From Prorocentrum cordatum (taxonomy: Eukaryota), in the NCBI GenBank assembly GCA_963575745.1, contig CAUYUJ010000120.1, positions 1-64,000 on the forward strand: a stretch of 64,000 nt of DNA. The letters are read 5' to 3'. Under the pieces are notes generated by a model. That model worked only from the letters and a program-made list of their open reading frames with translations. It had not been told where the DNA came from and searched no databases. Made by a program: the position numbers and the translations under genes. This document shows positions 28,795-64,000 of the stretch, in pieces. Positions within the stretch are counted from its first letter, which is position 1. Every line of letters starts with the position of its first letter.

Positions 28795-31700
28795 ACTACT
28801 GTATTGTTCGAGTCATCTTGAGAGGTGCTGTCGGTTTTCTGCACTTAACTCGGGCTGTAGTGGGGCTGCAGGACTGGTAATGACAGGAGTCGATTCGCAG
28901 ACATCAGACGCGTCCGCCTGTTGCAATCAGAGGTCGAAAAATATTCACTATGAGTCGGAATGTTGGTAGGTGCTGTCGGTTTTCTCAACTTAAGTCGAGC
29001 TAGGAAGCTCTACGAGTCTCCCGGCGGTAACCAAGGTTGACGGTTTACCGCCGGCGCCCAGTAACTCGTAGAGCTTCCCTTAGCAAGTTATTGCTGGAAG
29101 CTTAAGAGTAATTCCGGGGCGCTGGAGAGCTAGTTGGCAAGAAAAATCTCGACGGACATTTTGAGGAATTTTGGTTGGTTGAAAATTAGGTTCTCGAAAT
29201 TCAACCATTCGTACCTCGTAGGCCGACCCGGCCTTAAGAGACAACGTGGTGACTGTGGGTCGGTTTTGTTAAGATTTCAAAGATATTTGACAATTCATTT
29301 GGAGAAACCAGATTTTTCTCACGTGTAGTGGGTTATGCCGCGTCTGCCACTTAAATTATCAGGTTCGTAGTTGCAATATTGCTATCGAAAGACTTGCAGG
29401 AACCGCTTTTGGATGGAAACCGAAAAATCGTAGTTTTTCGAATTTTTCGGCTCTCGCTTTAGAAGCTTCCTTCATGTTTGCCGAGGAGCGCTGTGCAAGA
29501 AAAGAGCTCTACGAGGTGCCCGGCGGTAACCTGCTCTAGCGCCGGCGGTGAACCGTCAACCTGATCACCGCCGGGAACTCGTAGAGCTCCTTTCACTCGT
29601 AAGAGTGCTCAGAGTCGGAAGAGAGACCTTCTCGAGGTATTTCCCGAAAAAGGCAAAATTGATGTTTTTTTCATGTCGACATAAAAGATGGTTCCCCAAG
29701 TGTTTTGATAGTAAAAGTTCGTCTATAGAGCTCATATTAAGACGAAGAGGCCCTCATAATCGTTTACAAGTGCGAAAAATCTGCTTTGAGAAAAACCTCG
29801 ACGGACCTTTTGGTGACTTTTGGTCGGTTGAAAATTTTGTTCGCGAGATTCCTCAATTCGTTTGAGCTCTAATTTTTTTCCCGTGATATTCGATATTATT
29901 CCCGCTCGCCATCTTGATCTCAGCTCGATCGGATATTTTTTATTGCCAAAAAGCGTCCAGGCGGGACCGGCCGTTTCGAGTCATCTTGATACGCGCTGTC
30001 GGTATATTGAACCTAGCTCGAGATATAAGACAGCTACAGATCTGGTAAGCACACCTTATCGATTCAGAATGATCAGGCGCGTTCGGCTGTTGCAACCAGA
30101 GGTCTGAACTCGGTCTGCTAGCCGAGCTAGGTCCGCAACCCTATTCGTTTTATTCGAGTCATCTTGACAGGCGCTATCGGTTTTCTGTTTTTGACTCGAG
30201 CTATAGGACAGATACAGAGCTGATACTTACAGAAGCCGATTCAGAATCATCAGTCGCGTTTGTCTGTTGAATACAGAGCTCTGAACTCGGTCTGCTGCCC
30301 GATCCAGAATCGCGAAAATGTTCGTATTGTTCGAGTGATCTTGAGAGGTGCTGTCGGTTTTCTGCACTTAACTCGGGCTGTAGGGGGGCTACAGTGCTGC
30401 TGGTGACAGCAATCGATTTGGAGACATCAGGCGCGCTCGCCTGTGGAATCCAGAGCTCGGAACTCGGTCTGCTGCCCGAACTCGGTCCGCGAAACTGTTC
30501 GTATTGTTCGAGTCATCCTGAAAGATGCTGTCGGCTTTCTGCACTTAACTCGGGCTGTAGGGGGGCTGCAGGGCGGGTAATCACTGGAATCGATTCGGAG
30601 ACATCAGACGCGTCCGCCTGTCGCATTCAGAGGTCTGAACTCGGTCTGATACTCGAGCTGGGTTTGCCAAACTATTCGTTTTGGTCGAGTAATCTTGAGA
30701 GTCAGGAAGCTCTACGAGTCCCCCGGCGGTAAGAAAGGTTGACGGTTTACCGCCGGCGCCCAGTTGGTCGACCCGATCAGAAAGGACAAAGTGGTAACTT
30801 TTGGATGTTTTCGCGAATATTTGAAAGATATTTGACAATTCATTTTGAGAAAGCAGATGTTTGGCACCTGTAGTGGGTTATGTCGCGTCTACCAGTCAAT
30901 TTTCAGGTCTGTAGGTGCAGTATTACTATCAAAACACTTGGGGGAACCGATGTTGAATAAAAACAGAAAAACGTGATTTTTGCAGTTTTTGGTTTCTCGC
31001 TCCAGAAGCTTTCTTCATGTGTTTCGACGATCGCCGTGCAAAGAAAGAGCTCTACGAGCTTCCCGGCGGTAGCCAGGTTGACGGTTTACCGCCGGTTCCA
31101 AGTTAGAGCTCTAGTACTTTTTCCCGTGATATTGGATTTTATTCCCGCTCGCCATCTTGATCTCAGCTCGATCGGGTACCTTTTACTGCCAAAAAGCACT
31201 GCGGCGGGATCGGCCGTTTCGAGTCATCTTGATTCGCGCTGTCGGTATACTGAACTTAACTCGAGATATAGGACAGCTACAGGGCTGGTAAGCACACCTT
31301 ATCGATTCAGAATGATCAGGCGCGTTCGGCTGTTGCAACCAGAGGTCTGAACTCGGTCTGCTAGCCGAGCTAGGTCCGCAACCCTATTCGTATTATTCGA
31401 GTCATCTTGACAGGCGCTCTCGGTTTTCTGTACTTAACTCGAGCTATAGTACAGCTACAGGGCTGATACTTACAGAAACCGATTCAGAATCATCAGTCGC
31501 GTTTGTCTGTTGAATACAGAGCTCTGAACTCGGTCTGCTGCTCGATCCAGAATCGCGAAACTATTCGTATTGTTCGAGTGATCTTGAGAGGTGCTGTCGG
31601 TTTTCTGCACTTAACTCGGGCTGTAGGGGTGCTACAGTGCTGGTGGTGACAGCAATCGATTCGGAGACATCAGGCGCGTCCGCCTGTGGAATCCAGAGCT

Positions 31701-32380
31701 CGGAACTCGGTCTGCTGCCCGAACTCGGTCTGCGAAACTGTTCGTATTGTTCGAGTCATCCTGAAAGATGCTGTCGGCTTTCTGCACTTAGCTCGGGCTG
31801 TAGGGGGGCTGCAGGGCGGGCAATCACAGGAATCGATTCGGAGACATCAGACGCGTCCGCCTGTCGCATCCAGAGGTCTGAACTCGGTCTGATACTCGAG
31901 CTGGGTTTGCCAAACTATTCGTTGTGTTCGAGTCATCTTGAGAGGTGCTGTCGATTGACGCACGTAACTCAGGCTGTAGGAGAGCTACAGAGCTCGTACA
32001 GAAGACAATCCAGAAGCATCGGGTGGCGTTCGGCTGTTGCATCGAGAGGTCTGAAATCGCTTGGGCTGAAAAACTATTCGTTCTCTGCAATTTTTTTCGA
32101 CATTATATATTGTCAGGAAGCTCTACGAGTCCCCCGGCGGTAAGAAAGGTTGACGGTTTACCGCCGGCGCCCAGTGTTTCAGCTCCTGTCGGGTCTGCTG
32201 CCACGACGCTTGAAGAGGGCTGGGAGCTGGTCAGCCGTTCCCATCCTCGCGTGACGCCCCAGCTTAGGACCGTGGTAGAGGAGGAGGGTAACAGCACAGA
32301 CAGTACGGAGACCATGATGGAGGACATGGAGGAATGCGTTGATTTAGGCTCGGGGAGGCTCGGGTCAGGGAACCATAATC

Positions 32381-33463
32381 ATGACAGAAGGGGACGCCCG
32401 CGCGCGCTCGCAGGGACTGCGCGCATCAGAGCGCGCAATTGGATCGTGCGAGCAAAGCGCGTTGGCGACAGCGGTTGCTGTTGGTTTGTTTGGCCGTGGA
32501 AGGCGTGTGCGCCAGGCGTGGAAAGCCGTGTGCGATGCCGCCCGGGAGTCCGAGACCCGGAAGAGGCGCGGTTTGGACGAGAGCGACGATGTCCCATTGC
32601 CGTCGCCGCAGCTCGCTGAATTGAGCGAGCAGTTCTTCGCTCGGTATAAGATGGCGTACCCAGCGGAGTGTGAGCCGTCCGAAGCGCTGGTCAGTAAGAT
32701 CAGCAGGGAGCTGGGCAGGCGCCAGGTGACGATGATGAGTGTATGGAAGGTCCGCACGTTGCTGAATGCCGCGAGGGCTGCCAGGAAGCGGCAGCGCATT
32801 GGGGATGTCGAATTCGTGTGCGATGAGAAGGAAGATCCGGATCCCGCGAAGGACTTGAAAACCTATATCGCGTTGCACCAGGTTCTCATGGTGGCATACG
32901 CGCGCGCTGGGGTGAAGCCGATTGACCCGGCGCCCGGGACGCCAGAGAAGGCGTCTTCGGATACGACGGATTTCGTGCAGATTCCGTTGGATGTCGCGAT
33001 GGCCTACCATTTCCGTTTGGTCAAGTACGCCAGTGCGATGCCGTTCTCGATTGCGCTGCCTAACGTCGTGCGTCGGGACGAGGAGGAGCGCGCTTGGTGG
33101 ACGGACAGGGTCCGCACCAGCGAGCTGAGCGTCGGGAAGATAATCCGCGAGGGCTTGCAGACTCGCGAGGTCATGTGGAGCCCGCCCTCACCGCCAGCTC
33201 CCGGGCCGCAGCGGCCGCCGACGAGCGTCGGGCGGAGCCAGCGGACAGGTGGCAAGGGCGCGCAGTTGGGCGATCGGTTGAAAGACGGAACCCAGGTGTG
33301 TCGCAAGTTCAACGCCGGGGAGTGCTCCGAGCCGTGCCCTCGCGGGTATAAGCACGTCTGTTCCGTCGTGATCAACAAGACGGGGCGCTTGTGTGGCATG
33401 TCGAACCACTGCGCCCTCAAGTGCACCAGGAGCCCGGGTCTCAGTTTTTGGTTTCCCTGTTAG
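32381..33463 (+). CDS. Gag-like protein with C-terminal Cys/His zinc-finger region; may splice (33430-33565) and end at TGA 33618-33620
   Basis: 360-aa ORF with CRKFNAGECSEPCPRGYKHVC..LCGMSNHCALKC, lying upstream of RT. The N-terminus overlaps repeat A and may be truncated. Confidence 0.7.
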   Translation: MTEGDARARSQGLRASERAIGSCEQSALATAVAVGLFGRGRRVRQAWKAVCDAARESETRKRRGLDESDDVPLPSPQLAELSEQFFARYKMAYPAECEPSEALVSKISRELGRRQVTMMSVWKVRTLLNAARAARKRQRIGDVEFVCDEKEDPDPAKDLKTYIALHQVLMVAYARAGVKPIDPAPGTPEKASSDTTDFVQIPLDVAMAYHFRLVKYASAMPFSIALPNVVRRDEEERAWWTDRVRTSELSVGKIIREGLQTREVMWSPPSPPAPGPQRPPTSVGRSQRTGGKGAQLGDRLKDGTQVCRKFNAGECSEPCPRGYKHVCSVVINKTGRLCGMSNHCALKCTRSPGLSFWFPC

Positions 33464-33620
33464 CTTAAAGGGGGCGGCCCGGGTCCGGGGGCGCCCTGGG
33501 TCCGGGAAAGGCGACGGTTAGCGCCGAATGTTCGGAACACCCGGCGTTGTAGTTTGCGACACGAGGAACGCGAGCGGGGGCGCGGCCGACGGCGGCAAGC
33601 GCGGCCGCAAGGGCGATTGA

Positions 33621-36390
33621 AACGCACCCGCTGCCGCGCCGCCCGCCGCGGCAGAAGGGGCAGTCACCAGTGGGGTCGCGTGCCCCAGCGTCGTGGGCGT
33701 GCGATGGAGCCAGGCGGACATCGCTGTGAAAATTCGGAAGTCCTTTCCGGAAGAGTGGCTGGTGGGCGTTCCCATCCCGTTCTTGCAAGACTTGTTGAAT
33801 ACTTCGCCATTCGTTGATTTCGCCATCTGGGCGGAGCTGCAGGACGAAGGACTACCTCTGGGATGTTCTCTGGGCAGAAATTCCAAGGGGCGCGCGAGCG
33901 CCGTGTTGGGTCGCCAGGCAGGCGTGCTCGACCACAGGCTAGCGCTGGCGCCGGTTATCGAACTCGGCGTGGGGGAGCGGGCACACCTCGCTCAATGCAT
34001 CGAATTCGCGAGCGCGGGGCGATTGCCATTCGACGATGAGTACATGGCACCCGTTGATTTGAAGTATGCTGCCTTTGCCACGGTTGCGTTCGCGTGGGCC
34101 GGTGGTAATCGGCTGAGGCAGTGGCGCGAGTCTTGCGCCGGGGCGTTGAAGGAGCTTAGTCAAAGGCTGGCGCCGGTGTCCCGCGCCCTTCGGCTCTGGC
34201 AAAGCCCCTCAGTACATGCCGTGGCGCAGAACACCCACATCGCGCTGATTTGTGTTCTGACTTGGGTGATGGGTTGGCCGGATTGGCAGCTGGCCCAGAG
34301 ATTTGTGACCGGCTTCAATATCGTGGGGCGATTGGAGGAGACGGGTGTCTGGGAGCGGTGCGAAAGTTCGGAACCTGTTTCTGAAGACCGCTTGTTGGCG
34401 GAGTCCACCGCGCTTTTACGTTCCAGGGACAAGCGACGGGTTGATCCTGAGGCTGAGTTTCTTTGGGAATCATGCTTGAAGGAATGCGAGAAGGGCTGGG
34501 CTGCTCCTCTGGCGTCGCTGGCCGCGATGGACCGCGAGTACGGCGCCGGGCGCTGGGCGGCCGTGCCGTCGTTCGTGCACGTGCAGCAGAACGGCAAGCG
34601 TCGGCGGATAGACGATGCTAAAGCCGGTGGGCAGAACGGCGCGACGGTGTACCCTGAGAAGTGGCACTTGCCATCAGCGTTCACGCCTGCATTGTATGGC
34701 AAAGTCTTGAGGCAGCGGTCGGGAGGTACGCCAAACACCGGAGGTGGCCTTTTCCCCCTCCCCGCCGGCCGGTGTGTCGCGGGTTTCCCGCGGGCCGTTC
34801 CCCCGGGTCCGTTCGTGTGGGCCTAGTGGGCCCCTCCGGTGTCCAAGGGGCGTGGTCCGGCCCGGTGTTTGGCGTGCGCCCTCAGGCAGGAAGCTGCGGC
34901 GGGAGGCTTTGCCGATGAGGGCTTAACCCTTGAGACTGGAGGCGAGGACCTGCCGGACGCATACAGGTCCGTGCCGGTCAATCCCGCGCAGCTGCGATAT
35001 AACGTCATTGCGGCGCGGGAACCGCGCAGCGGGGAGTGGCGATACTTGACTGCATTCGCCATGCTGTTCGGCTTGTCGTCGAGTGTTATGAATTTCATGC
35101 GGTGGTCTGCCTTTCTGGAAGCCGCTGCCAGGCGCGTGGCGGCATTGTTGCACACAATGTATGTCGATGATGGCAGTCTTGGGGACCTCGGATTGGCGAA
35201 AGGCTCGGGACAGGCTTTACTCAACGTCTTGTTTTCGGAGTTGGGTACCCCGAATGCCAGCGCGAAGCAGCAGCGCATGGCCGCCACTGGGGCATTCTTG
35301 GGAGTCGATCACGACGTGTCTCGGGTTTTTGAAGGCAGAGGGGTGGTCTCCTTTTGGCCGAAGGCCAGCATGATTGACAAAATCAAAGGCCTGCTCGCGG
35401 AGCACCGTGCGCGGAACAGCCTGACACCAGCGGAGGCCTCGAAGCTCCGGGGCATTCTGCAGTGGTCGTCCTCCGCGATGTTCAACGGCGTCGGCAGCGC
35501 CGCGATGGCGCCGCTGAAGCAGAGGCAGTACACTGACGCGCCTCCGTGGGCGTTATCCCACGCGATTCGGCGGTGCTTCGATTACTTCGAATTTGTAATA
35601 GACCTTGCCCCGAAGAGAAGCGTCGACGTGAGCCCGCCCTCGTGTCCGCTGATTGTGATCGCAAGCGACGCGCGGGCTGACGGGGCGACCGCGCCCACAG
35701 GCGGCTACCTCCTGGTCGATTGCTTGACAGGGGAGCGTGTGGGAGGATGGTGTGTATTCGACGATGCCATACTCGCGGAGTGGGGTTTCTCGCCGGCGGA
35801 CCGGGAGAGGGGCGCGAATCCGATCGCCCTCTGTGAGGGGGCCATGGTCCCCATTGTCCTGGCGCAAGAGGCGCGGAGGTGCCGAGGGAGGCGCATCCTG
35901 TGGGTGCTTGACAACACGAGCGCTCTCCACAGCTTCGTGAGTGGCAGGTGCGACCATGCTACCCTGGACCGGAGCGTCAAGCTTATGAATTTCTTCAAGG
36001 CGCGCGCCGCGAGGGCAAATCGCGGGGGGACGCGCCGTGCAGCGTGTCGCGCCAGTTTCACTGCGACATGTCCACCTGGCTCGAGTGGGTAGACTCGAAA
36101 AGCAACTGGTCGGACGGGATCTCACGGCGCGCCGTACGCGCGCGGGGGCGGCCTTCCCCCGAGTCGTCCACTCGCGCGGTGCCAGGCGGCTCGGCGAGGA
36201 TAGCTTCGCCCGGGAGAATGGTTTTCGTACCGGCGAGGTGAGAGTGGACCCGGCCGCGTGGCGCGGGTGCTTACTAGACGCGTGGCGTTGGGTGCTACGG
36301 CGCGCGGAAGGCGCGATCCGCGAGGGCAATTCGCGGGGGGTGGGCCGCGGCGTGCAGCGTGCCGCGCCAGGCTCAGTGGATTCGCCGTAA
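33621..36390 (+). CDS. DIRS-type reverse transcriptase-RNase H (pol) in five putative exons
   Basis: RT motifs KRRRIDD, EDLPDAYR, MLFGLSSSVMNF, YVDD. RNase H motifs IASDA, ALCEG, LDNTSA, WVDSKSNWSDGISR. The frame is continuous after removing 34712-34885, 36000-36055, 36127-36185 and 36311-36370. Confidence 0.85.
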
Positions 36391-38139
36391 AGAAGGAGTC
36401 CGCGCAGGAGAGGTGAGCGCGGGCCCAGCCGCGGGGCACGGGCATGCCTCAGACACGGGGCGCCGTGTACATCGACGCGCGATTGCGGAGCGGCGTCGGA
36501 CCCAGAACAGCGTTGGGGGTGCAGAAACGCGGAGCCAGAGCAGCGTTGGGGAGAGCGGCATTACTGGCGAGCCACGCCAGGGTCTTGCCTTCTTCACGCA
36601 GGTGTTCCATTCGGGGGGTTTGGTCACCCCAAGGTCGTTCTGCACCCCCGGAGCACCGTTACACTTTCTGGGGTCGGGGGACGGGGTATGGGTTGGGGGA
36701 ATGGGTGGGAGGATGGGGCCGTCGCGCGCCGTGTTCGCAGGTGGAGCGCGCGCGCGCGCGGAGGAGCGGGCCGCCCGCGTGCGCTTCGCGCCGCGGCGGG
36801 GCGCGTGCGATTCGCGGCGCGCGAAAGTTGCCAGGGGCCGCGCAGGGCGCGGCGCGGGGAATAGGCTGTCGGTGATTATGCGTTGACTTTAGGCTCGGGG
36901 AGGCTCGGGTCAGGGAACCATAATCATGACAGAAGGGGACGCCCGCGCGCGCTCGCAGGGACTGCGCGCATCAGAGCGCGCAATTGGATCGTGCGAGCAA
37001 AGCGCGTTGGCGACAGCGGTTGCTGTTGGTTTGTTTCCCACCCACCACACCCTGGGCCCCGGTGGGGTTACCGGGGAGAATTGGGATGGGCGCCGGCGTG
37101 GACTTCGCCGTGCAAGAGGCGATGCGCACCGGCTGCGAGGGGTCCTGCCTCGAGTCGGCCGAACGTGTGCGTCGCAGGTGCGAGAACGCCGCGCAGGTCA
37201 GCGCGTGCGGGGAAGGGGCCTTCCTTCCCTGGTGGCCGCTGGCAGCGGTCGCATCACCAGGTGTAACGTCTGACAGGTGCGCGACATGTTTTGCGCGCGC
37301 GAACACGCCCGCCGTATCCCGACCCCCGGTGGGGTGCTCGGGTCGGCGAGGGCGGCGCCGGACGCCGGCAGTGTTCGCTTTCCCCGTGGGGAGAGCGGCA
37401 TTACTGGCGAGCCACGCCAGGGTCTTGCCTTCTTCACGCAGGTGTTCCATTCGGGGGGTTTGGTCACCCCAAGGTCGTTCTGCACCCCCGGAGCACCGTT
37501 ACACTTTCTGGGGTCGGGGGACGGGGTATGGGTTGGGGGGAATGGGTGGGAGGATGGGGCCGTCGCGCGCCGTGTTCGCAGGTGGAGCGCGCGCGCGCGC
37601 GGAGGAGCGGGCCGCCCGCGTGCGCTTCGCGCCGCGGCGGGGCGCGTGCGATTCGCGGCGCGCGAAAGTTGCCAAGGGCCGCGCAGGGCGCGGCGCGGGG
37701 AATAGGCTGTCGGTGATTATGGCAGGAAGTGGAGGATGTGACGACACAGAGTGTTCAAGCTGTTGCGGAATCACCTACTTGTGAAGGTGAACTTATCAAT
37801 GCGGCGATTGTGTCTGCGGCCAGTCAACACCTCATGCACAGGGGCGGCAGGTGCGTCGTCCGAAGAAGCCCGAGGACTTGTGGAGGGTGCAGGAGGACAT
37901 GAAACAGCTTAGGAAGGAGAGGAGGTGGGAGGACTGCAAACAGTTACGAAGGCTTTACCGACCTGCGAAGAGAAGGTACCGTGCAGAGCTTGTCAGGTTT
38001 CAATTTACCAGGGAAGGACGGAGCAAGCGTACTTACAATCAGGTACCGTTGGAGGTGGTTCAGGAGGATGATGGGATACATAGATCGGAAGACTTGGAGG
38101 AGTGGGGGGCGGGGGTTGGACGGTTTGCGTGCGCCACTA

Positions 38140-41100
38140 TTCCCGGGGAGCTCTCTGAGAGCTAGAGGGTTTTAGATTAGAAGCCGGACGGTGGTGGTGT
38201 CTGCCAGCAGCCCATCTTCGCCGCTCCAAAATCCCCGCAGCGACCTGTAAAATGTCGCAGCGGGGCCGGGAGCGCTTCGGGCACGCGTCCACGCGTGCCT
38301 GCACGCGTGCAGGCACGCGTGGAGGCGTTCCCGGCAGCGCTTCAGAAGCGCTGCAGGGAAGCCCCCAGAGCTCCAGAAGCGCTTCATGAGAGCGTCCGAG
38401 GGCCAGCCAGAAAAGCTTTCCGGCGTGTCTTCTCTTTGCTCTCTGCTCTCCGGGTTTTGGACGCTACCAAGTACCTCGTAGAGCTCTTCGCCATCGATGA
38501 GCTAGAGGAATTCCGGCGCGGGAGGGAGCTAGTTGGTCGACCCGGCCAGAAAGGACAAAGTGATAACTTTTGGGTGGTTTTGCAATTTTTTGAAAGATAT
38601 TTGACAATTCATTTTGAGAAAGCAGATTTTTCGCACCTGTAAACGACTATGAGGGCCTCTCTGTCTTAGTATGAGCCCTGTAGGCGTACTTTTACTATCA
38701 AAACACTTGGCGGAACCATCTTTATGTCGACACGATTTTTTCTTTTTTCGAGAAATGCTTCCAGAAGCTCGTAGAGCTTCCCTTAGCTAGTTGCTGGAAG
38801 CTTAAGAGTAATTCCGGCGCGCTGGAGAGCTAGTTGGCAAGAAAAATCTCGACTGACCTTTTGCTGACTTTTGGTCGGTTGAAAGTTTTGTTCTCGAAAT
38901 TCCACAATTCGTTTGAGCTCTAGTTTTTCTTCTGACCACATTCGATCTTATTCCCGCTCGTCATCTTGATCTCAGCTCGATCGGGTAAATATTTCTGCAA
39001 AAAGCATCGCGGCGGGATCGGCTGTTTCGAGTCATCTTGATACGCATTGTCGGTATTTTTTACTTAACTCGAGCTGTAGGGCAGCTACAGAGCTCATTCT
39101 CTCAGGAATTGATTGCGAATCATCAGGCGCGTTCGTCTGTTCCATCTAGAGGTCTGAACTCGCTCTGCTGCCCTAGCTAGGTTCGCGAAACTATTTGTGT
39201 TGTTGGAGTCATCTTGAGAGGTGCTGACAGTTTTCTGCACTTAACGCGGGCTGTAGGGGGGCTACAGGGCTCGTACTCACAGGAATCGATTCGGAGACAT
39301 CAGGCGCGTCCGCCTGCCGAATCCAGAGCTCGGAACTCGGCGTGCTGCCCGAGCTAGGTTCGCAAAACTGTTCGTATTCGTCGAGTCATCTTGAGAGGTG
39401 CTGTCCGTTTTCTGCACTTAACTCGAGCTGTAAGGGGGCTGCAGTGCTGGTAATCACTGGAATCGATTCGAAGACATCAATCGCGTCCACCTGTCGCATT
39501 CAGAGCCCTGAACTCGGCCTGCTGCCCGAGCTAGGTCCGCGAAACTATTCGTATTGTTCGAGTCATCTTCAGAGGTGCTGTCGTTTTTGTGCACTTAACT
39601 CGGGCTGTAAGGGGGCTGCAGGGCTGGTAATCACAGGAATCGATTTGCAGACATCAGGCGCGTCCGCCTGTTGCATTCAGATGTGTGAACTCGTCTGATA
39701 CTCGAGCTAGATTCGCGAAACTATTTGTATTGTTCGAGTGATCTTGAGAGGTGCTGTCGATTTTCGCACGTAGCTCGCGCTGTGCGAGAGCTACGGAGCT
39801 CGTGCGCACTGAAAACGATCCAGAAGCATGAGGGGCGTTTGGCTGTTGCATCTTGAGGTCTGAAATCGTTTAGGCTGAAAAGTTATTCGTTCTCTGCAAT
39901 TTTTTCCGACATTATATATGCTTAGGAAGCTCTACGAGTCCCCCGGCGGTAAGGAAGGTTGACGGTTTACCGCCGGCGCCGAGTTCCGGCGCGGGGTGGA
40001 GCTAGTACCTCGTAGAGCTCTTCGGCATCGATGAGCTAGAGGAATTCCGGCGCGGGGTGGAGCTAGTTGGCCGACCCGACCAGAAGAGACAATGTGACAA
40101 ATTGGGGTCGGTTTTGCTAAGATTTGAAAGATAATTCACAATTCATTTTGAGAAAGCAGATTTTTCGCACCTGTGAACGATTATGAGGGCCTCTGCGTCT
40201 TAATATGAGCTGTGTAGGCGCACATTTACTATCAAAACACTTGGCGGAACCAACTTCATATTGACATGAAAAAACATCAATTTTGCTTTTTTTTCGCGAA
40301 ATGCTTCTAGAAGCTCTCTCTGTCGATTCTAAGCACTCTCGCGCGTGGAAGGAGCTCTACGAGGTTCCCGGCGGTGACCAGGTTGACGGTTCACCGCCGG
40401 CGCCAGTTTGCCGACCCGACCAAAAGAGACAATGTGACAACTTTTGGGTGGTTTTGCATTTTTTTTTGCAAAGATATTTGACAATTCATTTTTAGAAAGC
40501 AGATTTTTCGCACCTGTAAACGACTATGAGGGCCTCTCTGTCTTAGTATGAGCTCTGTAGGCGCACTTTTACTATCAAAACAGTTGGCGGAACCAACTTC
40601 ATGTCGACCTGAAAAAAATCAATGTTTCCCTTTTTCGAGAAATGCTTCCAGAACCTCTCTCTTTCGACTCTGAGCACTCTTACGCGTGAGAGGAGCTCTA
40701 CGAGGTTCCCGGCGGTGACCAGGTTGACGGTTCACCGCCGGCGCCAGTTCAGTGCGAAGAGGCTCGCTACGCTAGTGCTCAGGCGTTGGAGACGGCGAGG
40801 TGTGCAGCAGCAGCCTCGCATCGGGCAGTGGACATTCGTGTGTGCTCGTAGAGCTCTTCGGCATCGATGAGCTAGAGGAATTCCGGCGCGGGGTGGAGCT
40901 AGTTGGCCGATCCGATCAAAGGAGAGAATGTGACAACTTTCGGTGGGTTTTGGTAAGATTTGAAAGATGTTTGACAATTAATTTTGAGAAACCAGATTTT
41001 CGGCACCTGTACTGGGTTATGGCGCGTCCGTCAGTATAATTTTCAGGCCCATAGGCAGTATTATTATGAAAACATTTGGAGTAACCGACTTTTGATGAAA

Positions 41101-48516: not shown

Positions 48517-50057
48517 GACTCGTAGAGCTTCGCTAAGAGCGAAGCAGCGAAGCTAGAGAGTAATTCCGGCGCGCTGGGGGGCTACTTGGCAACAGCAAAT
48601 TCGGAAGTTTTGCATATTTTTGTTCGGTTTAAATTCGATTTCTCGGAATTCAACTATTTGTTAGAGCTCTGGTATTTTGGTCTCTTCATATTCGATCTTA
48701 TTCCCGCTCGCCATCTTAATCTCAGGTCGATCCGGTACATATTACTGTCAAAAAACAGGTGGGCGGGATCGGCTGTTTAGTGTCATCTTGACAGGTGCAG
48801 TCGTTCTTCTGAACCGAACTCGAGCTGCAGATGAGCCACAGAGCTGTTCGGCACAGCAATCGAAAGATAATCATCAGAAGCGCCAGTCTTAAGTATCTAC
48901 CTGCCCGAACTCGGTCTGCTACCAGAGCTGGGTTCGACAAACTATTCGTGCTCTGATATTTTCGAGACATGATGATGAGTTTATCGATGCAATTGAGCTG
49001 CAGGAGCTACAGAGCTGGTTTGCACAGCAATCGAGAGGAACTCATCCGGAGCGCTAGTCTCAAGTATCCATATGCCCGAAATGGGTCTGCTACCAGAGCT
49101 GGGTTCGAACAACTATTCATACTCTGCTATTTTTTTGATATGACGCTGAGGTTCTTGATGTAACTCGAGCTGCAGATGAGCTGGGGATCTGTTTGGCACA
49201 GGAACCGAAAAGCAATCATCAGAAGCGATAGTCTGAAGTATCTAGATGCACCAACACGGTCTGTTACTACAGCGGGGCCCGAAAACTAGTTGTGCTCGGT
49301 ACCTTTTTTAGAGATGATGATGGGTTTCTTGAGATAACTCGAGCTGCAGATGAGCTACAGGGCTGCTTGGCACAGCAATCGTAAGACACTCGTTCTGAGC
49401 GCTAGTCTCAAGTTTCAAGATGCCCAAACTCGGTCTGCTTCCAGAGTTGGAACCAAAAGCACTATTCGTCTTCTGTAGTTTTTTAAGAGAAGACGATGTC
49501 TTCCTTGATGTAGCTCGAGCTGCAGGTGATGTTAGAGCTGTTCAGCACAGCAATTGGACGAATATGGCCAGGATCGCGAGGTACAAGTCTCTTCATGCTG
49601 GAATTCGGTCTGCATCCAGTGTTGGAACCAAACAACTATTCGTATTCCTGTTCCGCCTCCTCTTCCTTCTCCTCCTTCTCCTCCTCCTCTTCCTCATTCA
49701 TCTGCTGCTCCTCCTGTTTCTCCTCCTGTTCCTTCTCTTTCTCTTCCTTTCTCCTCATCTTCCCCCTCTTCATCATCGTCATCATCATCGTCCCTCTTCT
49801 CCCCCATCCACCCCCCCTCTGCTCGTCGTCCTCCTCTCCCTGCTCCCCCTCCTCCTCCTCCTCCTTCTCTTCCTTAACCTCCTCCATCTCCTTGTTCTCC
49901 TCGCTCCTTCGTCTCCTCCACGCCCCCTTCCATGAAACCGCGTCCTCGCGCGCGCAGAATGCGAGATTGCCGCGCCCGCGTTCCGTTCATGTTTATGGAG
50001 GCAGCTCTACGAGTTCCCGGCGGTAACCAAGGTTGACTTGGTTGCCACTGGGGCTCG

Positions 50058-51705
50058 GTGGCTTCCTCGCGCGGCTCGAGCAGCATTGCGCGGTCAGGGC
50101 CTGGCCCGCCGCGCGGGGGGGCGCGGCGATCGGGCCGCGGGCGTCTCCAGCGTCTTCGGCGAGTTCGAGGCTGCTGGCCGCCTGCATTGTTTGGTATTTG
50201 TTTGTGTGCGTTGCTTGCCGCGACATTTTGTCTGCGGCCCCGTGCTGTTCGGGACGAGTCAGTATCTGCAGATCTGGACCGTTGGGGATCTAACTTTGGT
50301 CACTGGGAGTGGGGCTATCTTGCCAGACAGGTTGGCGTGCCTCGTGGGACTATCTTGCCAGACAGGGACTCCCTGGTTGACGTATCATCTGGACCTCCTG
50401 ATTTGTGTCCAACTCTACCCTTTGATCCTGTTGCCCCATGCGACTTTCGTCAGTTGGGATCTCTTCTGCAGAAGAAACGGACTCGTGAAGATCGTTCTGG
50501 TGTTACCCCTTGTGTTAATCCTGACGATAAGATGGCCACTGCACTTGGTCTTGCTGCCCCAGCGCAATCCGACATGGCGGTGGGGGAGACACCTGCTACT
50601 GTTGATGGGCTTGCAGGGAAGGCTGACGAGGAGGATGAGGACATGGTTGCTGTTCTGAATGAAGATCTTGATGGGGATGACCGTGGGTCGATGTCTCGCC
50701 GTGGCTTGTTGGGTGAGGGAGGTGGGAAGGCTGGGGGGATGGACATGTTCGCGTTCATGAGGCTTGAGTTTGAGAGATTGCACACCTGCTTCAAGACAGA
50801 GCTCCAGGCTAATAGAGTGGAGGTCACCGCTGAGATCAAAACCACTGTGCAGCAAGAAGTTGCGCCTGTTCGTTCTGAGCTGCAGGAGTTGAGGGATCGT
50901 ATCGGGCAACAGGATGTGAAGATCGCCAATATACAGCGTGGTGCCTCGTCGTGTGACGATGCCCAGAGTGCTCGTTCTGGTGTCTCCACTCGTGCGTCTG
51001 CAGGTCCTCAGGTGCGTGCTACCCCTGCTCCCTTTAGTCCGTCATTCATCTCGATCCAAGGCTGGACTAGTGGGGGCCCGAAGGATGTTAAGAGCCGTGC
51101 TAACAATGTGATGGATGGAGGTCGGGCGGGGAGAGTTTCTCAGGCTTTAATGGAGCATGTTTCTGCATCGCGTGAGAACCAAGAGACTAAGATCTTTGAC
51201 CGTACTCGTACCCTGGCGGAACTTACTAACAAGCCCTTTGGGCTATTCCGTATTCGCATCTACTTCCTGAGCTCGACGCCGAAAGAGACGGTCTGGGAGA
51301 TTCGTGTTGAGTGGGCTAATGCATTCAATAGTAAGTCGGTGGCCATTTCAGCTCCAGAGGTGATGAGCCCGTTGCTCGATAATGTCCGCGTCGCGTTCCA
51401 GTGCGAGGTGCCACCGTGGAAGACTGAACAGGTTCATGCTGGTAAGAAGTTTGTTGCGACCTTTTTCAAGCGTAAGTCTGTCTGTGGCATGCACTGGATA
51501 CGTCAAGGTGCAGTATGATCGTAACCCTTCTGTTGCCTGGGCCTGGGCTTACCCTCATGGGCGTCTCAATGCTGATGGTAAGTTCTGCCTGGGTGCCTGG
51601 GCGCTGCAAGATGGGTGGACTCTTCAGGCATCAGAAGTTACCAAGCTGGATCCCAGTATTGATGCAGTTGCGTGGCAGTCGGCTTTGAACAGTAAGTCGT
51701 GGTGA
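50058..51705 (+). pseudogene. LINE ORF1 with predicted coiled coil; one frameshift near 51500, true start uncertain
   Basis: 486-aa ORF with heptad-like VRSELQELRDRIGQQDVKIANIQ, directly upstream of the endonuclease. Confidence 0.6.
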
Positions 51706-51734
51706 CGACGGCTACCTGAGCTACTCCTCTGTGG

Positions 51735-54700
51735 ATGGAATGGCCGCCGTATGGGTATCGTTGCGACGGAAGCTTTCCACCGCATGTCCAACTTGGGCTG
51801 CCGTTTGTTTGCGTTGCAGGAGTGCCAATGGATGTCATCAGTTGCTGCTCTCCATGCGGGTTTGATTGCATATTCTCCTCTCTTGTTGCTGCTGGCGAGG
51901 GCAGAGCTGGCATCTTCTTTGGTGGATTTCTGCGTGCGAGTTTCATTGGGCATCGTGAGGGTAGCAGGTCTTGCATTTGTGCCTTCCAGGGGCTCCTCTT
52001 TGTTTCCGTCTACTTGCCGCATCGTGAGACAATAGGTAAGGCGCGCGGTGAGCAGCTAGAAGCGTTTGGGATGTACCAAGACATTTTGACTAACATGACG
52101 GGTGATGTCATGGATCTAAAACGTAAACATCGTATCACGAAGATGTTCTGCGTGACCTGTATGCTCGCTCCCTTGTCACTGGTATGGCTACGCTCAAGCT
52201 CTCTCTGGCTAACACGTTTGGGGATCGAGTCGCTACTAGCCGTTTACCGTCGGGTCAGGAGTCAGTCTTGGACTATCTTGCTGTGCCGAAGTCGTGGTCG
52301 TGCTCACCTGTGGTGTCTTGGTTGTTCCCGCGCGCTTGTCGGAATCTGCCGAATGTGGAGATGCTCTGGAGTGACCACAAGCTGTTATCGTTGCGCATTC
52401 CGTCTCCTGTGCAGTTAGGCGGCCAGCGCCCCAAGTCCTCGAGTAAGTGGAGGGTGGTTGCCCGGAGGGAGGTTGACCAGGCGCGTCTGTTTCACCATGC
52501 ACTGTGCCCCGATGGTTTCGAGAGGCCTGTACCTGCTGTTTGTAGCCCGCGTTATCGTGTTTGCTCTCGTGGACCGTCAGCCTCTGGGGCTAAGATGAAG
52601 GAGGCTGCTGTGGCGAGCCAATCGTGCCATGTGTTCGAAGGCCCGTCGGATCTCTTCCCGGGGTTGTCTGAGGAGCAGGTTCGGTTCCGCCGGGAGCATT
52701 ACCAGCGTCACAGAGATTGGAAGCGGGGGCTCATTGAGGAGGAGGAGTTCAATAGGAGTAGGAGGAGGTGGACGGCTATCAGAAGGTCGTATCGTAGGCA
52801 GCTTATTGTATATCGTCATCGTGAAGGGCTTAAACATGAGTCTCTGGTCACGCACATGGAGGTGTGTGGGGGATGCTGACGGAGGATCGTTCTAAATGGG
52901 TGGAGGGTCTATCTCAGCATGCCAAATCAAAGTACGAGGATGAGGAGATGAGGATCCTGAATAACAGTTGTCTTGAAGAGCTTCGTGTACGTGCTGATTG
53001 GGCTGCCTCTGTGGGTTCCAGTGGGCCTCGTGAGTGTCCGATCTCAATGGCGGTGCTTCTTCGTGCGCTTTCTAGGCTCAAGGAGGGCCGTGCTGTGGGA
53101 GCAGATGGGATACCTTGCACTGTTCTCAAATCCTTGGCATGGTCTTCTCTTCGTGTGATATCATCGTCGTTCCCGTTACTTTATCGTCGTGAAGTGTCAT
53201 CGCCAGATTCCTGGCGCCAGTTACGTGTAAGCCTCATGTTGAAGGGTCCCAGGTTTCGCCGTTTTGGAGAGTCTCGTGCACTCGCAGTTCTCAGCGTATT
53301 CAGTAAGTGGTATTCGTGCTGCCTCACCCTGTTATTGGACGAGCATGTTCGTCGTGCTCTGCCGTGTACGGGCTGCAATCTCTACGGATTCTGCTCTGGC
53401 CACCGTTTCCGCGAGATCACGGCGGGCCTCAATGTCTTGGCTCATCACTCGAGGCTTTGGGGTAAAGATCAGAACGTCTTCATTGCGAGTCTGGATGTTG
53501 GGCAGGCGTTCGACCACTTAACGATTCCTCTAGCTAGTGCGAGCCTGCAATGGTTACAATATAATGATGAGTTGATCTTCGCTCTTATGGAAGGTGCAGT
53601 TACTAATGCCGCTGACTTTCAATTTCAGGAGGTTCGTTCGCATCCGATGCCCTGGGATTCGTGCATCCGTACTGGGTCTCTGGAGGGCCCACCGTTGTGG
53701 AATGCGCAGTGTATCAGGATGTTTGGGCCTGTATATCAGAATTGGGAGCGCCTGGGAAAGGGCCTTGTCTTGTCGGCGGAGGCTGGAGGCATCTGTGTTT
53801 CTCACTTTGTATGGGCAGACAACGTCATTCTGGTGGCGGGCTCCCTCCCCATGTTGACCTCGATGATCGTCGATCTAAGCCAGCCCTGTACCGCGGGAAA
53901 GGGAGGGGGATCAGAACATCTCGGTTGTGGGCGGGTCGCGCTCGTTCGTTGACGTGGCTGTGGATGATGGTCGCAAGAGAAATCGCAGGCAGGAAATTGG
54001 TGAGATGCAGAGGCAGGCTAAACGTGCCCGTGGGACCTTGTCTCAAAACACTGTCCGTGTGCGTGATGCCTTTGAGCCGTCCCGTGCTGTGCCACCGCCT
54101 GAGAAGAGACGGAGGCTGCGTTGGTCCCCCGAGCCTGTGGCCCCATGTGTGTCCAGCTTTGCTCAGTCTCGCCTGTTGATGTTGCACGCTTCGGGTTCGT
54201 GGACGCGGGCTCGCGATACCCTGATCCATCTTGCTGGGGCCAAGGAGGCTCGGGCGTATACCCGCTTGAGGGGCCAGAGTACGAACCTGAAGGGGCTCAC
54301 GCCGTGGCACCTTATCTTCGAGACGGTGGGGGGCGAACTGTGGCAGTGTAACCTGAGTTGGTGTGAGCACGGCTGGTTACCTTTCGTTCGTGGCGTTTGT
54401 GGTCACTTTGATTTGCCTGATATCCTGCAGTGGTGTGTACTTAAAGACCCCCATCCCTGGAACCCTAAGGAGAAGGAGGATGAGGAGGTGAATGTGACGG
54501 AGGAGCAGAAGGCTAAAGCAGATGATAAGTTAGCTCAAAGACTGGGAGAGTGTACCTGGGAGAGTGTACCTGGGAGAGTGTACCTGGGCATCTTGCGGTT
54601 GAGCTGAAGGGTGACTCGCAATGTGTGATCCGACGGCTGGAGGGATTATATTTCACGGGGAACATAGGATATGCGTCCAAGGTGGCGGAAATGCAGAACC

Positions 54701-59901: not shown

Positions 59902-62900
59902 CTTTGCGGTCGACTGTGCAGGCTTTCCAGCCTAGTCGGAGCAAGAGGCGGGCGCATCGGGAGCAGGCGGAAGCCTCGCCGATCCAAACGATCAGAGGCG
60001 TAAGCCAGCTCTTATTTGGAGGATGAGAGGTCAAGCACACACACACACGACACACACAGGCAAGGCGTGAGTGAGCACAATCACTTATTCACATCATGTC
60101 CTGTCCGGAATACGCATGTACAACCCGCGGCACAATCAGAATCGTATGCTCAACGGCCGAGATCTCGGCATCTGTCACTGTCGAAGTTGGGTCAAGCGAG
60201 AACGCCGCACTATACACCTCCGTCCAGATAATATCATGGCTGAGTGGCTGCCTTGAGAGCCTCGATATACGTCCAACATCTATCCAGCACCCGACTCCCA
60301 CGCCGTCGCAAGAGACGCCACAATCGAATCCAGCTCTGATGGCGCAAACGCGAAACACCTGATCTAACTGTGGGGCGTAGGGCCCAATCCTGTCCCGAAA
60401 CACTGGTGGCCCGACACGGGCCGTATGAGTGAGTACATCTGCACGCATGTTCCATTCCCTGTATGTGTGGTCAACAATTTCCCTCCCATGAGAGGCAGGC
60501 CTAATTCCGAATCTCTGACACATGTTGTCTAGTTGGTTAATCATTCTGTTAATCCTATCTTGATAAGTGCGATTTAGCACCCTCCAGACACCCTGAAGCC
60601 AAGACACCACCAGAAGACTGTCCCCAGAGATGTACACCGGAATCCCGAAAGAGTCGAGATCGTACACAACCCCCTTCATTTTTTGTAACGCAATACGTTT
60701 GGCCAGTTCGTCGTTGAAAGCTGGAGTCCCCTTTTGAGCCCCATATGTGTGTAGGTCGTTTTGTGTGATAGTATGCACCTCCTGCAGGGCCCCACCTGTT
60801 GTACCGTACCCTTTTCTCTTCTGAAAATAGCTCAGCATCGTCCGTGTACACATGTGCTCGCAGAACTGAATGTAAGCTGCATCTGTCGGCACAAAGGACT
60901 CCCGCCACTTGAGTCCGTAGAATTCACAGAAAGAAAATAGCCAGCATCTCTGGCCAATAGCTCTACCTGAGCTGATATGTCTCCTCTTGAGCTGTGAAGC
61001 CTCTTGGAAGCGAAATATCCCCCGCAGGAACTCAGAAGCATCCGTCCTGAGTCTGTCCCACAGTGGGCCATATGCAATCGTAGTCATGTGGTGGTCTCGC
61101 CAGTTACGCTGCGTCGAAGAAATGTCCTCATGAGAATCAGCACGCAAGATATAGATAAAATTTGCAGCATCCTTGGCGGAGTTCCACACCATACGGAGAA
61201 AGCGCTGCACCAACGTCGCAAATCCGTAGGATCGAAATTGCTCTCTGGCCTCATGGTACCGTCGTCGGTTCCAGTCCGCCATCGTCTCCTCCTCCCTCCT
61301 TGGCCGTCGAAACATACGGCACAAACGCCAACCCTCGAAGGCATTGAGCATATGTAGTGAGGAGGTATCTGCAGTACAAGTCTCCAGACAATACAATGCC
61401 ATACTCTGCACCTTATCCTGATAACGACAAACTTTATCACGAACAGCAACCGCTCTGTTACGAAAGAAATCCGCCTGTCCGATGGAACAAGCACGAGCCT
61501 CTTTGATGCGATACTCTACATTAGGATGTGCAGGCAATAGGTAGGTATAATATATCTCATGACCCAATACTTTCAATCTGCACACACGTCGAAGACTAAA
61601 GCCCTGATACCCAGAGCATGCAGGAATAATCAAATCCTCACTGGCAGGTATATGTCCATCTCCGTCCACTCTCGCATTTTCCCCACATGTCATGTACAGC
61701 AGGCTGCTATCCTTCCACCTCATCCCCCAGTCGTGTAATGGTAGGGTTAGATCGTGAATCATCTGAGCCAGCATGGTTGAGGAGGCAGACACAAGGTAGC
61801 AATTGTCCGCCCACACAATGTGGTTCACGACTGTCCGTCGCTCATACTCTCCACAGACACCCTCCAGCACATACCCCACTCCTCGACTGTCCCACTCCCG
61901 AAATATTGGTCCCACATGGCACATGTGATAAGGTTGAAGAGAAGAGGCCCCTCAGGGCCGCCCGTCCTGATACAGACGTCCCAATTGATATTGTGAATAG
62001 CCATGCCCTCGACAACTAACGACCCCGTAGTGCAAACCAATGGTGCAAGTAACGCATACTGAAGATAGACAAGAATATTGGCATGGCACATAGCTCTCTT
62101 AGCGTTTTGAAGGCTGCAGTGGTCAAACGCTTGTTTGATATCGGCATTCGCAATATGGACCGTTTGATCCTTTCCCCAGACGTCCCCATGTTCAGCAAGA
62201 GCCTTGAGGGCCCCCACAATTTCCACAGTCTTACGTCCCTCCTGGAAGCCGTAGATGCCCAGAGGTCCCATGAGCCCAGCCCGAGAGACAAATTGTTCGA
62301 CCAAGATCACCACACAAGCATAGTACCAACGGCTGAGACTGTTTTGCAGACAGAGGTACCGTGCATCTGTCAATGATGTCAAGCTCGGCAGCTTGGGCAT
62401 GAAGGCGATCAAAATCTGCCTCCAGTCCTGCGGAAACTGCCGTGTCAATCGAACTATCCCATCAAACATCCGAGCTACACTGCGCAAAGTCGCCCACGGC
62501 AACACCTTGAGTAGTTCGCAAGGCAGCCTGTCGGGACCTGTGGCGCGCGTGGACTTGAGACGTGACCGTGCCTGGCACACCGCCGCCATTGTCAGTCCTT
62601 CTGTGCAGTACCCATCACATAGGTTCTGTTGTGCATCCTTCCTCAACTCCTCCAACATCTCCACATCCCGTCCTCTGACCTCCTCCGAAGTAGATCTCTG
62701 TCCGGTGTACGCTCTGATCTCCTCCGCCCACTCCTCCGTGTCCTCTGATATCCGTCCCTGCACAATAAGATGCTTGATGCTGTGACGTACTTTGCGCCTG
62801 CAAGCTGGGGAGGACCACGCGGCCAACGCCGCGCGATATTCCCTCCGGTGTCTGTTGGCACGTCTGCGCAAAGTGGGTACGTCCACTGACACAGGCAAAG

Positions 62901-64000
62901 GCTTCTGTCGCAGAGTCTCCTGGCAAGCCGTGAGCTCAGCAGGTCTATCTGGCGGTAGTCCCCGTCCCGCGGTGGCAGTCGTGAATCGGATTTCCTCCTG
63001 CTCTGTGCAAGCCCGAATAGTAGTCGACACAAGGTCCCCAGGAGAACAAGTAGTGTTGGCATCTCCTAAGACCCGATCGATTTCCTTTCGTGCCATGTTG
63101 AGGTCTCCCCAATTCACAGTCTTATAACCCACCAGACTCTTTTCACGAGCTGCCGTCGGGATGCTACGTTTGACCAGCTCATCGCCTGGATCACTAAAAG
63201 TCCCCTGAAGCAGGCCGTGGTCACTAAGACGACTACGATTTGTCTTTCCCCCATTATACATAATCGTTCCAACCGTCAACTTATCAATCACCCACGTCCT
63301 GGGAACAGAAATGTAGTCAAGAACCTTCTTACACGTCCCCCACCGAGATGTTTCGTAACTCTCCCATGTATGTAGTCGTCGTGGCAAGAAAAAATTGGCA
63401 GCCTTCATCCCCAGGCGCCCTAAAAAGCAAAGAACACGCTCGCGAAGTTGCTGTCGTACATCCCTCCTCTCCCGTTGTGCACCTCCCTCCTCGCAGGTCC
63501 TCCTCTCCTCCTTGGTAGCGCATCCCACCGCCTCATAGACTGTCCCAGTGCGTGAGCACTGCAGCTGGGTGGATGGAGGCAGCTCGACGTTGGCATCGAG
63601 CAGCACAGATACCGTCGCCCCTTTCCAGCGGCTGCGCAGAGTGAAAATGACTGACTCGAGTGTGTCCAAAACCCCACACTGCACATCTACAGCGTTCTCG
63701 ACGCCGGGGTCGGGAAGATACGCAGAGGCAACAATCACAGGAGCACTCCCACTACCGCAGACCACCACGCAGAACCGTTCGTACTGACACAGTGATTCAC
63801 GCACACATGTACTCCACTCTTTGTTACATAGTAACCCACACTTACCGTCACAACTCACGCGATATGATAGACCACGCCGTCTGATATATGCATCGAATTT
63901 GCCTCCGAAAAGATTCTGGCATTCCTGAACACCCCAGATGCTATCTCGCATATAGAGAGGCTCCTCAGGATCTCATTCCCCTTGAAATTAGCCGACCCCG
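59902..64000 (-). mobile_element. APE-type LINE running off the window; 3' end inside an element hairpin
   Basis: Minus-strand 3' junction ..ACCGCAAAG|AACCTGCTTGACGGTTTACCGCGGGCTCCCAGT. Confidence 0.9.
60089..63951 (-). CDS. LINE ORF2 (~1290 aa): APE endonuclease, RT, permuted RNase H; single frameshift near 61915
   Basis: APE: GVQEC, SAYLPD, LDAN, LDYI, SDH. RT: ATGPD, YGFQEGR, ADIKQAFD, CIRTGGPEGP, WADN. RNase H: GDS, HTYREWNMRAD, FDCG, AEISA. Confidence 0.92.

Follow-up and report, generated by a model that had tools for sequence, protein, structure and literature searches.

Putative spliceosomal introns resembling introners in the coding sequence of a DIRS-like retrotransposon of Prorocentrum cordatum

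Introns are normally stripped by retroposition, and the rare retroelements that keep them show how RNA that is translated is kept apart from RNA that is copied. The present work concerns a retrotransposon copy at about 32334-37721 on the forward (+) strand, to which all coordinates of the element refer, of a 64,000-nucleotide (nt) stretch of Prorocentrum cordatum DNA (GenBank assembly GCA_963575745.1, contig CAUYUJ010000120.1, positions 1 to 64,000; this whole stretch is called the window). Its coding sequence is interrupted by five segments, i1 to i5, and we put at about 0.55 the probability that these are spliceosomal introns in a 5'-deleted DIRS-like copy, with unspliced RNA being copied and spliced RNA being translated. 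Arkhipova and colleagues reportedly described in 2003 Penelope-like elements with spliceosomal introns. These differ from the element in the window in representing another retroelement order (with a GIY-YIG endonuclease and a telomerase-like reverse transcriptase, RT), in having animal hosts and in carrying canonical introns. Penelope-like elements are cited as retroelements keeping introns, and as would be the case here, their introns survive their own replication (PMC4209133). In copia, BARE1, Ogre and CRR, spliced RNA is translated while unspliced RNA is packaged and copied, and the Ogre splice joins open reading frames (ORFs) (Chang et al. 2013, PMC3735527); separate roles for spliced and unspliced RNA would likewise apply to the present element. 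Those elements have one regulated splice, often tuning the gag:pol ratio (PMC3735527), whereas five or six short, apparently parasitic inserts are located here in conserved enzyme domains and all of them would need removal for RT-RNase H to be made. Splicing beside replication from unspliced RNA is a known principle, not new in itself, as copia, BARE, Ogre and Penelope-like elements illustrate.

The repeat order A-coding-B-A-B is typical of DIRS elements and was described for those of Symbiodinium (SymbioDIRS), the RT of which escapes Pfam (de Mendoza et al. 2018, PMC5890265). The window element shares both the repeat order and an RT too divergent for Pfam models, and it differs in that SymbioDIRS were annotated with an 'intronless' gene model, whereas the coding sequence is interrupted five times here (PMC5890265). 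The segments themselves look like introner-like insertions of the miniature inverted-repeat transposable element (MITE) type, apparently gained at different times. In the model proposed for introner-like elements (ILEs) of dinoflagellates, a 4- or 8-nt target-site duplication (TSD) starting with GH becomes the 5' splice site and the end of the element supplies the AG (bioRxiv 10.1101/2020.10.14.339549). The same authors report GC and GA donors as frequent in dinoflagellates, in agreement with the first-pass annotation of this stretch, and GC, GA and GT introns as being spliced very efficiently (Roy et al., bioRxiv 10.1101/2020.10.14.339549). To judge from the available portions of the reports on dinoflagellate introners (Roy et al.; Amoebophrya, PMC7789003; Gozashti et al. 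2025, PMC12130899), the resemblance includes short inserts with a GC, GA or GT 5' end drawn from the boundary repeat and an AG end, possibly inverted repeats (here one, in i2), one sequence copied at different sites (here i3 and i5), and staggered gains with precise presence or absence among relatives. Unlike in those reports, the host 'gene' in the present case is a retrotransposon, and the inserts would be multiplied by reverse transcription. Also the 'CT at +5/+6' signature of Symbiodinium ILEs is not seen, the dinucleotides at +5/+6 being CC, CG, GC, GC and GA.

Four of the five segments have GC..AG ends and one has GA..AG ends (a slash marks the boundary with the following or preceding exon throughout). 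Segment i1 (33430-33565, 136 nt, GA..AG/G) holds the TAG that ends the unspliced gag frame; i2 (34712-34885, 174 nt, GC..AG/G) contains an in-frame TAG at 34824-34826; i3 (36000-36055, 56 nt, GC..AG/T) breaks the frame inside RNase H; i4 (36127-36185, 59 nt, GC..AG/G) also breaks the frame; and i5 (36311-36370, 60 nt, GC..AG/G) is in frame and stop-free. Their GC content is 64-81%. The first-pass annotation had proposed these coordinates, the GC or GA starts and AG ends, a G after four of the five acceptors, and a single RT-RNase H frame upon removal of i2-i5, all of which held when checked against the window sequence: the in silico removal of i2-i5 produces a single frame that begins at 33621, stays open for 806 codons, ends with the TAA at 36388-36390 and contains the peptides quoted there. 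In a MAFFT alignment of the in silico spliced pol with nine homologues, the junctions of i2, i3 and i4 are gap-free against all 6-7 uninterrupted homologues covering them (40-48% identity), reading ..GKVLRQ/EAAA.. for i2, ..MNFFK/FHCD..W.E.VDS..NWSDGISR for i3 and ..GISRR/LGED.. for i4. These three segments are insertions into an ancestral uninterrupted ORF, and a chance fit of the segment ends is unlikely because the i2-i4 junctions are gap-free across homologues. Segment i5 is counted among the inserts solely for its likeness to i3, of which it is a copy (85% identity over 53 nt; z=11.6, with 0 of 300 shuffles as good). An intein, a programmed frameshift and a ribosomal hop were also considered and set aside, the segments being non-coding-like, variable in length between copies and delimited by splice-type ends.

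For i1, the earlier claim that its removal extends gag stands insofar as gag then reaches the pol frame, with one TGA (33618-33620) between the two. The claim was nevertheless understated: removal of i1 is predicted to do more than extend gag, restoring the gag-TGA-pol read-through layout of the family. Related loci were fetched by an alignment query and comprise 43 metagenome loci with 31-53% identity, none of them close sister DNA, while a single-protein search had returned none from metagenome, viral or genome contig sets. The longer loci exhibit a conserved ORF0 (~700 residues) upstream, gag, a single stop, a pol of 1200-1370 residues and B..B repeats, the last seen in L036 and L002. In seven of the ten loci examined, the gag homologue shares the frame of pol and ends at one stop immediately preceding it; the exceptions are L007, where gag and pol overlap in different frames, L036, where the frame is shared by the gag tail alone, and L002, where the in-frame upstream ORF is not the gag homologue. 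The stop is TGA in nine of the ten relatives, followed by A in eight of those nine. The window shows the corresponding layout (..GAT TGA AAC GCA CCC..) only with i1 left out, and its TGA-AAC-GCA-CCC context resembles the TGA-AAC-xCC-CCC of relatives. This arrangement suggests that TGA read-through may be programmed in the family. Gammaretroviruses likewise have gag and pol in one frame with one stop between them and use read-through, which the layout points to in the present case. The available part of the SymbioDIRS report describes no such one-frame gag-TGA-pol (PMC5890265). In L001, L003, L005, L006, L011, L032, L033, L036 and the window (33618-33632), the TGA is followed by AAC, AAA, AAT, ACC or AGG and by a C-rich run. 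No alignment fixes exactly where i1 begins and ends; its ends were placed by the frame, by the family layout and by the gag tail that results from removal (NASGGAADGGKRGRKGD, which with the candidate read-through stop TGA at 33618-33620 occupies 33566-33620), as this tail is similar to the G/K-rich tail of the 60% relative P0153 (KMGGSAKGGAKGGKTS).

The distribution of the segments among sister copies was evaluated in contigs of at least 85% likeness from four runs of four studies (X2, n=28; X7, n=493; X8, n=15; X1, n=1), of which only three are guessed to be DNA, and which can demonstrate presence and not absence. The single X1 contig spans 32714-36546 with two differences from the window, and the X1 and X2 contigs bridge all five segments. 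X7 covers 30 of 30 bins and includes variant contigs that differ in length by 1 nt within i1, i2 and i4, and two bins (33308-33443 and 34668-34803) are uncovered in X8. Copies that are 95-99.9% identical carry all five segments, near-identical in sequence, and no joint at a segment site was found in contigs of the four runs. Among proteins, P0031 (97% to the window) reads through i2, present in a diverged form, in P0193 (95% in exon A) the frame likewise continues through an i2 that has diverged much further, P0024 and P0177 (95%) read into i3, and P0013 (90%) has 18 extra in-frame residues at the i3 site and ~21 at the i4 site. At greater distance, P0155 (69%) has contiguous flanks at the i2 site and its frame runs on into a segment located at the i3 position, P0001 (67-68%) lacks i3 and has a 25-residue insert at the i4 site, and P0156 (48%) is without any of the segments. 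Sister copies, which at the protein level are 87-98% identical to the window, inherit the segments, which are not disruptions private to this insertion; the first-pass annotation had reasoned that sisters lacking them would speak for post-insertion disruption, and i1-i5 are instead present in the sisters.

The i3 site is also occupied in more distant lineages. L001 and L015 (53%) carry a frame-breaking 62-nt GC..AG/G segment at the exact i3 codon boundary, in a pol that is otherwise open over ~710 codons. The L001 segment shows a weak likeness to i3 (z=4.0, better than 300 of 300 mononucleotide shuffles), and the surrounding target differs, being TTCAAG/../TTTCAC in the window and GTCCAG/../GGCCAC in L001. 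Elsewhere in pol, L011, L013 and L014 (43-44%) have in common a 201-202-nt insert inside RT, flanked by GTCTACT, the excision of which as GT..AG restores RRLLWLLWVMYVDD. Overall, pol inserts of at least 40 nt were detected by script in four of the 43 loci and by eye in L015, the others being uninterrupted or only frameshifted. A tree of 26 rows (the window, 13 proteins and 12 loci; L004, L016 and L023 were dropped for stops in the translated match, and the other 28 loci were not included) contains a well-supported clade of {P0155, P0001, (window, P0013)} beside {P0156, (P0003, (L001, P0157))}. The window, P0013, P0155 and L001 carry a segment at the i3 site, P0001 and P0156 do not, and P0003 and P0157 end before it. 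The different targets together with the weak likeness appear to favour inheritance of the i3 segment over two gains.

A sixth segment, i6, occurs in sister copies within gag, at a site (GGCAGGCGC, 32714-32722) that is unoccupied in the window copy. It measures 63 nt including the repeated 9-nt GGCAGGCGC, and its ends are readable as GC..AG/G; in the X1 contig it appears as 54 extra nt between two copies of 32714-32722. It is present in runs X1, X2, X7 and X8 and in P0151/P0174 and P0152 (an 87% relative), and as protein it is a 21-residue in-frame insert, VPLHAEGVTASRARPPMVGRR. The window gag and P0174 are identical at 306 of 307 aligned residues apart from this 21-residue insert. Although the sisters are otherwise ~99.9% identical, i6 is precisely absent from the window copy, and it is also absent from P0153, the gag of which has its own 19-residue insert elsewhere. 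Single segments are precisely absent in some relatives, as exemplified by i6 in the window and i3 in P0001 and P0156.

All of these inserts are bounded by short repeats, namely AGGA for i1 (4 nt), AGGCAG for i2 (6), AG for i3 (2), GGCG for i4 (4), AGGC for i5 (4), GGCAGGCGC for i6 (9) and GTCTACT for the L011, L013 and L014 insert (7). The repeats have the form of ILE target-site duplications, one copy of which would give the 5' splice site, and they are partly expected from any AG/G splice consensus alone. In i2, a 4-nt GCAG is located at both ends (within the 6-nt AGGCAG), and a 14-nt inverted repeat lies symmetrically near both ends (positions 17-30 and 151-164 of the segment), which no other segment has. 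Only i3 and i5 are alike among the five segments. The folding energies of i1-i5 are nothing special compared with shuffles (z from -0.30 to +0.32). It is tentatively proposed, at rather less than even odds, that introner-like transposons moved into a DIRS-like retrotransposon and ride along in it, so that the host spliceosome would be needed for the element's own RT-RNase H.

Codon-level constraint acts on copies that carry segments. Between L001 and L015, both carriers, third codon positions account for 42 of 88 exon substitutions (P=0.0036), the 88 dividing into 42 synonymous and 46 non-synonymous changes, and in a diverged X8 contig nine of the 11 changes within 34421-34496 are at third positions (P=0.0014; codon positions assigned by hand). 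Indel variants are somewhat enriched in the segments, which hold four of 11 of them in 12% of the length (P=0.034), and frame-breaking segments are kept in diverged copies with open exons. In the mechanism that we propose, GC-rich segments (56-174 nt) with G[C/A]..AG ends would have entered the coding sequence on separate occasions. The full-length unspliced transcript would be the template for reverse transcription, by which copies would inherit the segments, and only from spliced RNA could gag-TGA-pol and an intact RT-RNase H be translated. Occasional copying of partly spliced RNA might then leave copies precisely without one segment.

A number of observations weigh against this interpretation. 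No RNA run is among the runs listed as containing the element, and splicing is what we infer; no spliced form was found among the proteins or contigs searched, and no protein of more than 650 residues from a close relative, in spliced or segment-free form, was found, the best being 69% identical. The constraint signals are all upstream of the i3 site, and the part behind i3 is not proven to be read. Several versions are in frame and stop-free and possibly translated: those of P0013 measure 54 and 63 nt, i6 has 63 nt, i5 has 60 nt, and the insert of L013 and L014 has 201 nt. Uninterrupted distant relatives also exist that might act in trans. Segment i5, counted as an intron by the first-pass annotation, keeps its GC..AG/G ends and its likeness to i3, but it sits in an unconserved C-terminal tail, its removal is not needed by the frame, and it is without homologue support. 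On the tree, two gains at the i3 site take two steps against three for one gain and two losses, and the L001 segment was not aligned with i3 by MAFFT. The inverted repeat of i2 is only modestly unusual (matched or exceeded in 13 of 500 shuffles), and BLAST searches of the rest of the window and of 156.5 kb from related loci detected no extra segment copies. Regardless of the segments, the window copy is no longer functional, its gag N-terminus and all sequence upstream having been lost. As to the host, the top ESM Atlas cluster is labelled Haptophyta (five members).

The most serious competing explanation, which we consider somewhat unlikely, is that dead or non-autonomous copies contain MITE-like insertions that are not spliced, and that the family bearing them spreads by means of gag and pol supplied in trans by intact relatives or through duplication at the DNA level; in-frame versions would be tolerated as peptide loops, and frame-breaking ones would kill the copy. 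Such a history would suit the defective state of the window copy, the location of seven of the 11 listed indel variants in exons, the only moderately lowered dN/dS between L001 and L015 (~0.35-0.4 by a crude count) and the in-frame, stop-free condition of several segments. Moreover, such inserts are missing from the covered pol of 38 of the 43 related loci, which implies that uninterrupted relatives are common in nature. However, the nearest uninterrupted relatives found are at most 48% identical in RT-RNase H, which is far for trans-complementation, and a frame-breaking segment is located at the same codon boundary in lineages of 53-69% identity with the flanking ORF open. It is also difficult to reconcile with unspliced insertions that G[C/A/T]..AG boundaries restoring the frame exactly can be drawn for every segment, that single segments are lost precisely, and that lengths show no excess of multiples of three (~4 of nine lengths read from DNA).

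The shared positions, on the other hand, might not be inherited at all if related short elements repeatedly hit the same hot spots, such as those of i3 and i4, in separate lineages once each copy was in place. This is improbable: copies of 95-99.9% identity share all five segments in near-identical sequence, the targets at the i3 site differ between the window and L001, and two chance hits on the same codon boundary in ~2.4 kb are unlikely, even if the parsimony count prefers two gains there, the i4-site insert of P0001 (25 residues) is unlike that of P0013 or the window, and the L001 segment is only weakly similar to i3. An artefact of sequencing or assembling a GC-rich repeat can practically be discounted as the source of the segments, for they recur in the contigs of all four runs, each run belonging to a different study, and in proteins assembled independently (ENA, NCBI and Logan), despite the 64-81% GC, the homopolymer runs and the 1-nt length variants inside segments that would suit such an origin. 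Spliceosomal introns carried by unspliced genomic RNA remain our preferred explanation, and the interpretation offered by the first-pass annotation is, overall, partly supported.

With regard to its anatomy, the element has the order A1-coding-B1-A2-spacer-B2. Terminal repeat A1 (32334-32491) and repeat A2 (36878-37036, directly after B1) form a BLAST-extended pair with 99.4% identity, within which 32343-32491 is 100% identical to 36888-37036. Repeat B1 (36547-36880) is 99.4% identical to B2 (37387-37721), the right end of the element, and a unique spacer of 350 nt (37037-37386) lies between A2 and B2. Such split direct repeats instead of simple long terminal repeats (LTRs) are found in the window element as in DIRS, while a tyrosine recombinase ORF, also expected of DIRS, was not found in this element, the 5' part of which is deleted. 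From these features the element is classified as DIRS-like, neither a proven DIRS member nor an ordinary LTR element, and it is called only 'DIRS-like' because no tyrosine recombinase was found in the window and family and structure searches gave the ORF0 of relatives no match. This sets it apart from SymbioDIRS, with respect to both the missing recombinase ORF of the window copy and the ~700-residue upstream ORF of its relatives, which has no match (PMC5890265). The internal 5' deletion junction is at 32492-32506; sister copies diverge from the window upstream of 32507, where the sequence differs in contigs of all four runs. The 5'-truncated gag (32507-33429, part of the ORF 32348-33463) has a CCCH-type zinc knuckle near its end and is homologous to the gag of relatives, which has ~80 more N-terminal residues (P0153). 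The window copy is defective and non-autonomous, with ORF0 and the start of gag deleted.

The pol region consists of exon A (33621-34711), with an N-terminal domain without assigned fold and the first RT motifs (..GKRRRIDD..), to which homologues align (95% identity to P0193 and 67% to P0155); exon B (34886-35999), with the RT core (YVDD) and most of RNase H; exon C (FHCDMSTWLEWVDSKSNWSDGISR, 36056-36126), conserved in all covering homologues; exon D (LGEDSFARENGF.., 36186-36310), placed by homologue alignment; and the pol end with its TAA (36371-36390). The first-pass description as a retroelement with gag and RT-RNase H is supported. The motifs DLPDAY, FGLSSS, YVDD, ASDA, DNTSA and NWSDGISR were identified by eye, and exon B has 1982 homologues at E<=0.001 (HMMER, 1.84 billion representatives), one distant homologue having a weak RT_RNaseH match (E=0.009). 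A Pfam scan of the five exons and a PDB sequence search with exon B gave no match, and in the ESM Atlas RVT_1 is carried by lower-ranked clusters. Of 12 long homologues scanned, five contain DUF4326 and one has a weak DNA_methylase match, N-terminal pol additions in some relatives that are reminiscent of SymbioDIRS (PMC5890265).

Copies of ORF0 are located at L005:1663-3774, L011:963-3155, L036:3-2165, L033:912-3434, L002:3-1565 and L007:2-1243. Five of the six sequences as reported are 51-57% identical to the L005 copy, and L033 is 22% identical; the L033 ORF0 has a dual-specificity phosphatase match (E=2e-7). Searches of Pfam, NCBIfam and PDB profiles returned nothing usable to identify the ORF0 of relatives as a tyrosine recombinase, and an AlphaFold model was unusable (mean pLDDT 45.8). 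By eye, the consensus R..GKGK..YSNRR..GGW..HLY is recombinase-like, which is a lead only. For gag, P0153, P0187, L003:401-1771 and L033:4392-5606 have full-length Luciferase_N (PF05295) matches in the same place at the N-terminus, all below threshold (24.7, 14.3, 14.2 and 13.3 bits against a cut-off of 25; four of 12 relatives' gag). The family gag may be linked to a domain of dinoflagellate bioluminescence proteins, PF05295 being, as we presume, dinoflagellate-specific.

The GC content of the element (63-68%) differs from that of the surrounding DNA (~49%), which is rich in satellite arrays with a period of ~177 nt; these, located within 6561-47027, fill much of the window (18 Tandem Repeats Finder rows; for instance 31218-31998 and 39026-39783). 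When the element is excised at a shared ATG (..GGAGGAATG/GCAGGAAG..), the flanking open frames at 32250-32333 and 37722-37800 join in phase (..TETMMEDMEE-W-QEVEDVTTQ..), which suggests that the element was inserted into another ORF; the window was found to contain no paralogue of this site lacking the element. A unit of 130-140 nt adjoining the left flank recurs at least 12 times with 87-95% identity, and a palindrome is located just downstream of the element (38278-38333; 28-nt arms, no spacer, 93% complementary). Long ORFs with RT motifs of the long interspersed nuclear element (LINE) type (e.g. ..IANADIKQAFDH..), unrecognised by Pfam, are present at 50037-54607 (+), where the set is split over several overlapping frames, and at 60089-63972 (-), where the ESM Atlas places the ORF 61828-63972 among endonuclease-RT (LINE) clusters. 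The window contains no relic of the dinoflagellate spliced leader (DinoSL) within three mismatches and no Rfam family, and 45 flanking ORFs have no Pfam match. Indirect pointers to dinoflagellate nuclear DNA are the resemblance to SymbioDIRS and the sub-threshold Luciferase_N matches in the gag of relatives.

In the literature searched, supplements lying outside the search, no report was found of introner-type introns inside DIRS-like elements, which is not proof of absence. The combination that we have not seen described comprises several introner-type segments in DIRS-like enzyme domains, their inheritance among copies and the establishment of gag-TGA-pol by one of them. Provided that splicing occurs, five or six introner-like introns would reside inside conserved enzyme domains of a DIRS-like element, and both the spread and persistence of introners and the escape of genomic RNA from very efficient host splicing would become testable on one and the same locus. 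The presence or absence of i6, and of i3 in P0001 and P0156, provides markers to distinguish loss via spliced RNA from deletion at the DNA level, and intronless modelling of dinoflagellate transposons would fragment such elements in annotation. If introners indeed ride along in this retrotransposon, reverse transcription of unspliced RNA would multiply them, making the retrotransposon a second, RNA-based vehicle of their spread. Splicing would then decide whether an RNA joins the translated or the replicated pool, the removal of i1 would also set up the gag-TGA-pol read-through, and copies precisely lacking a segment would be a natural record of splicing, left by spliced RNA that had been copied.

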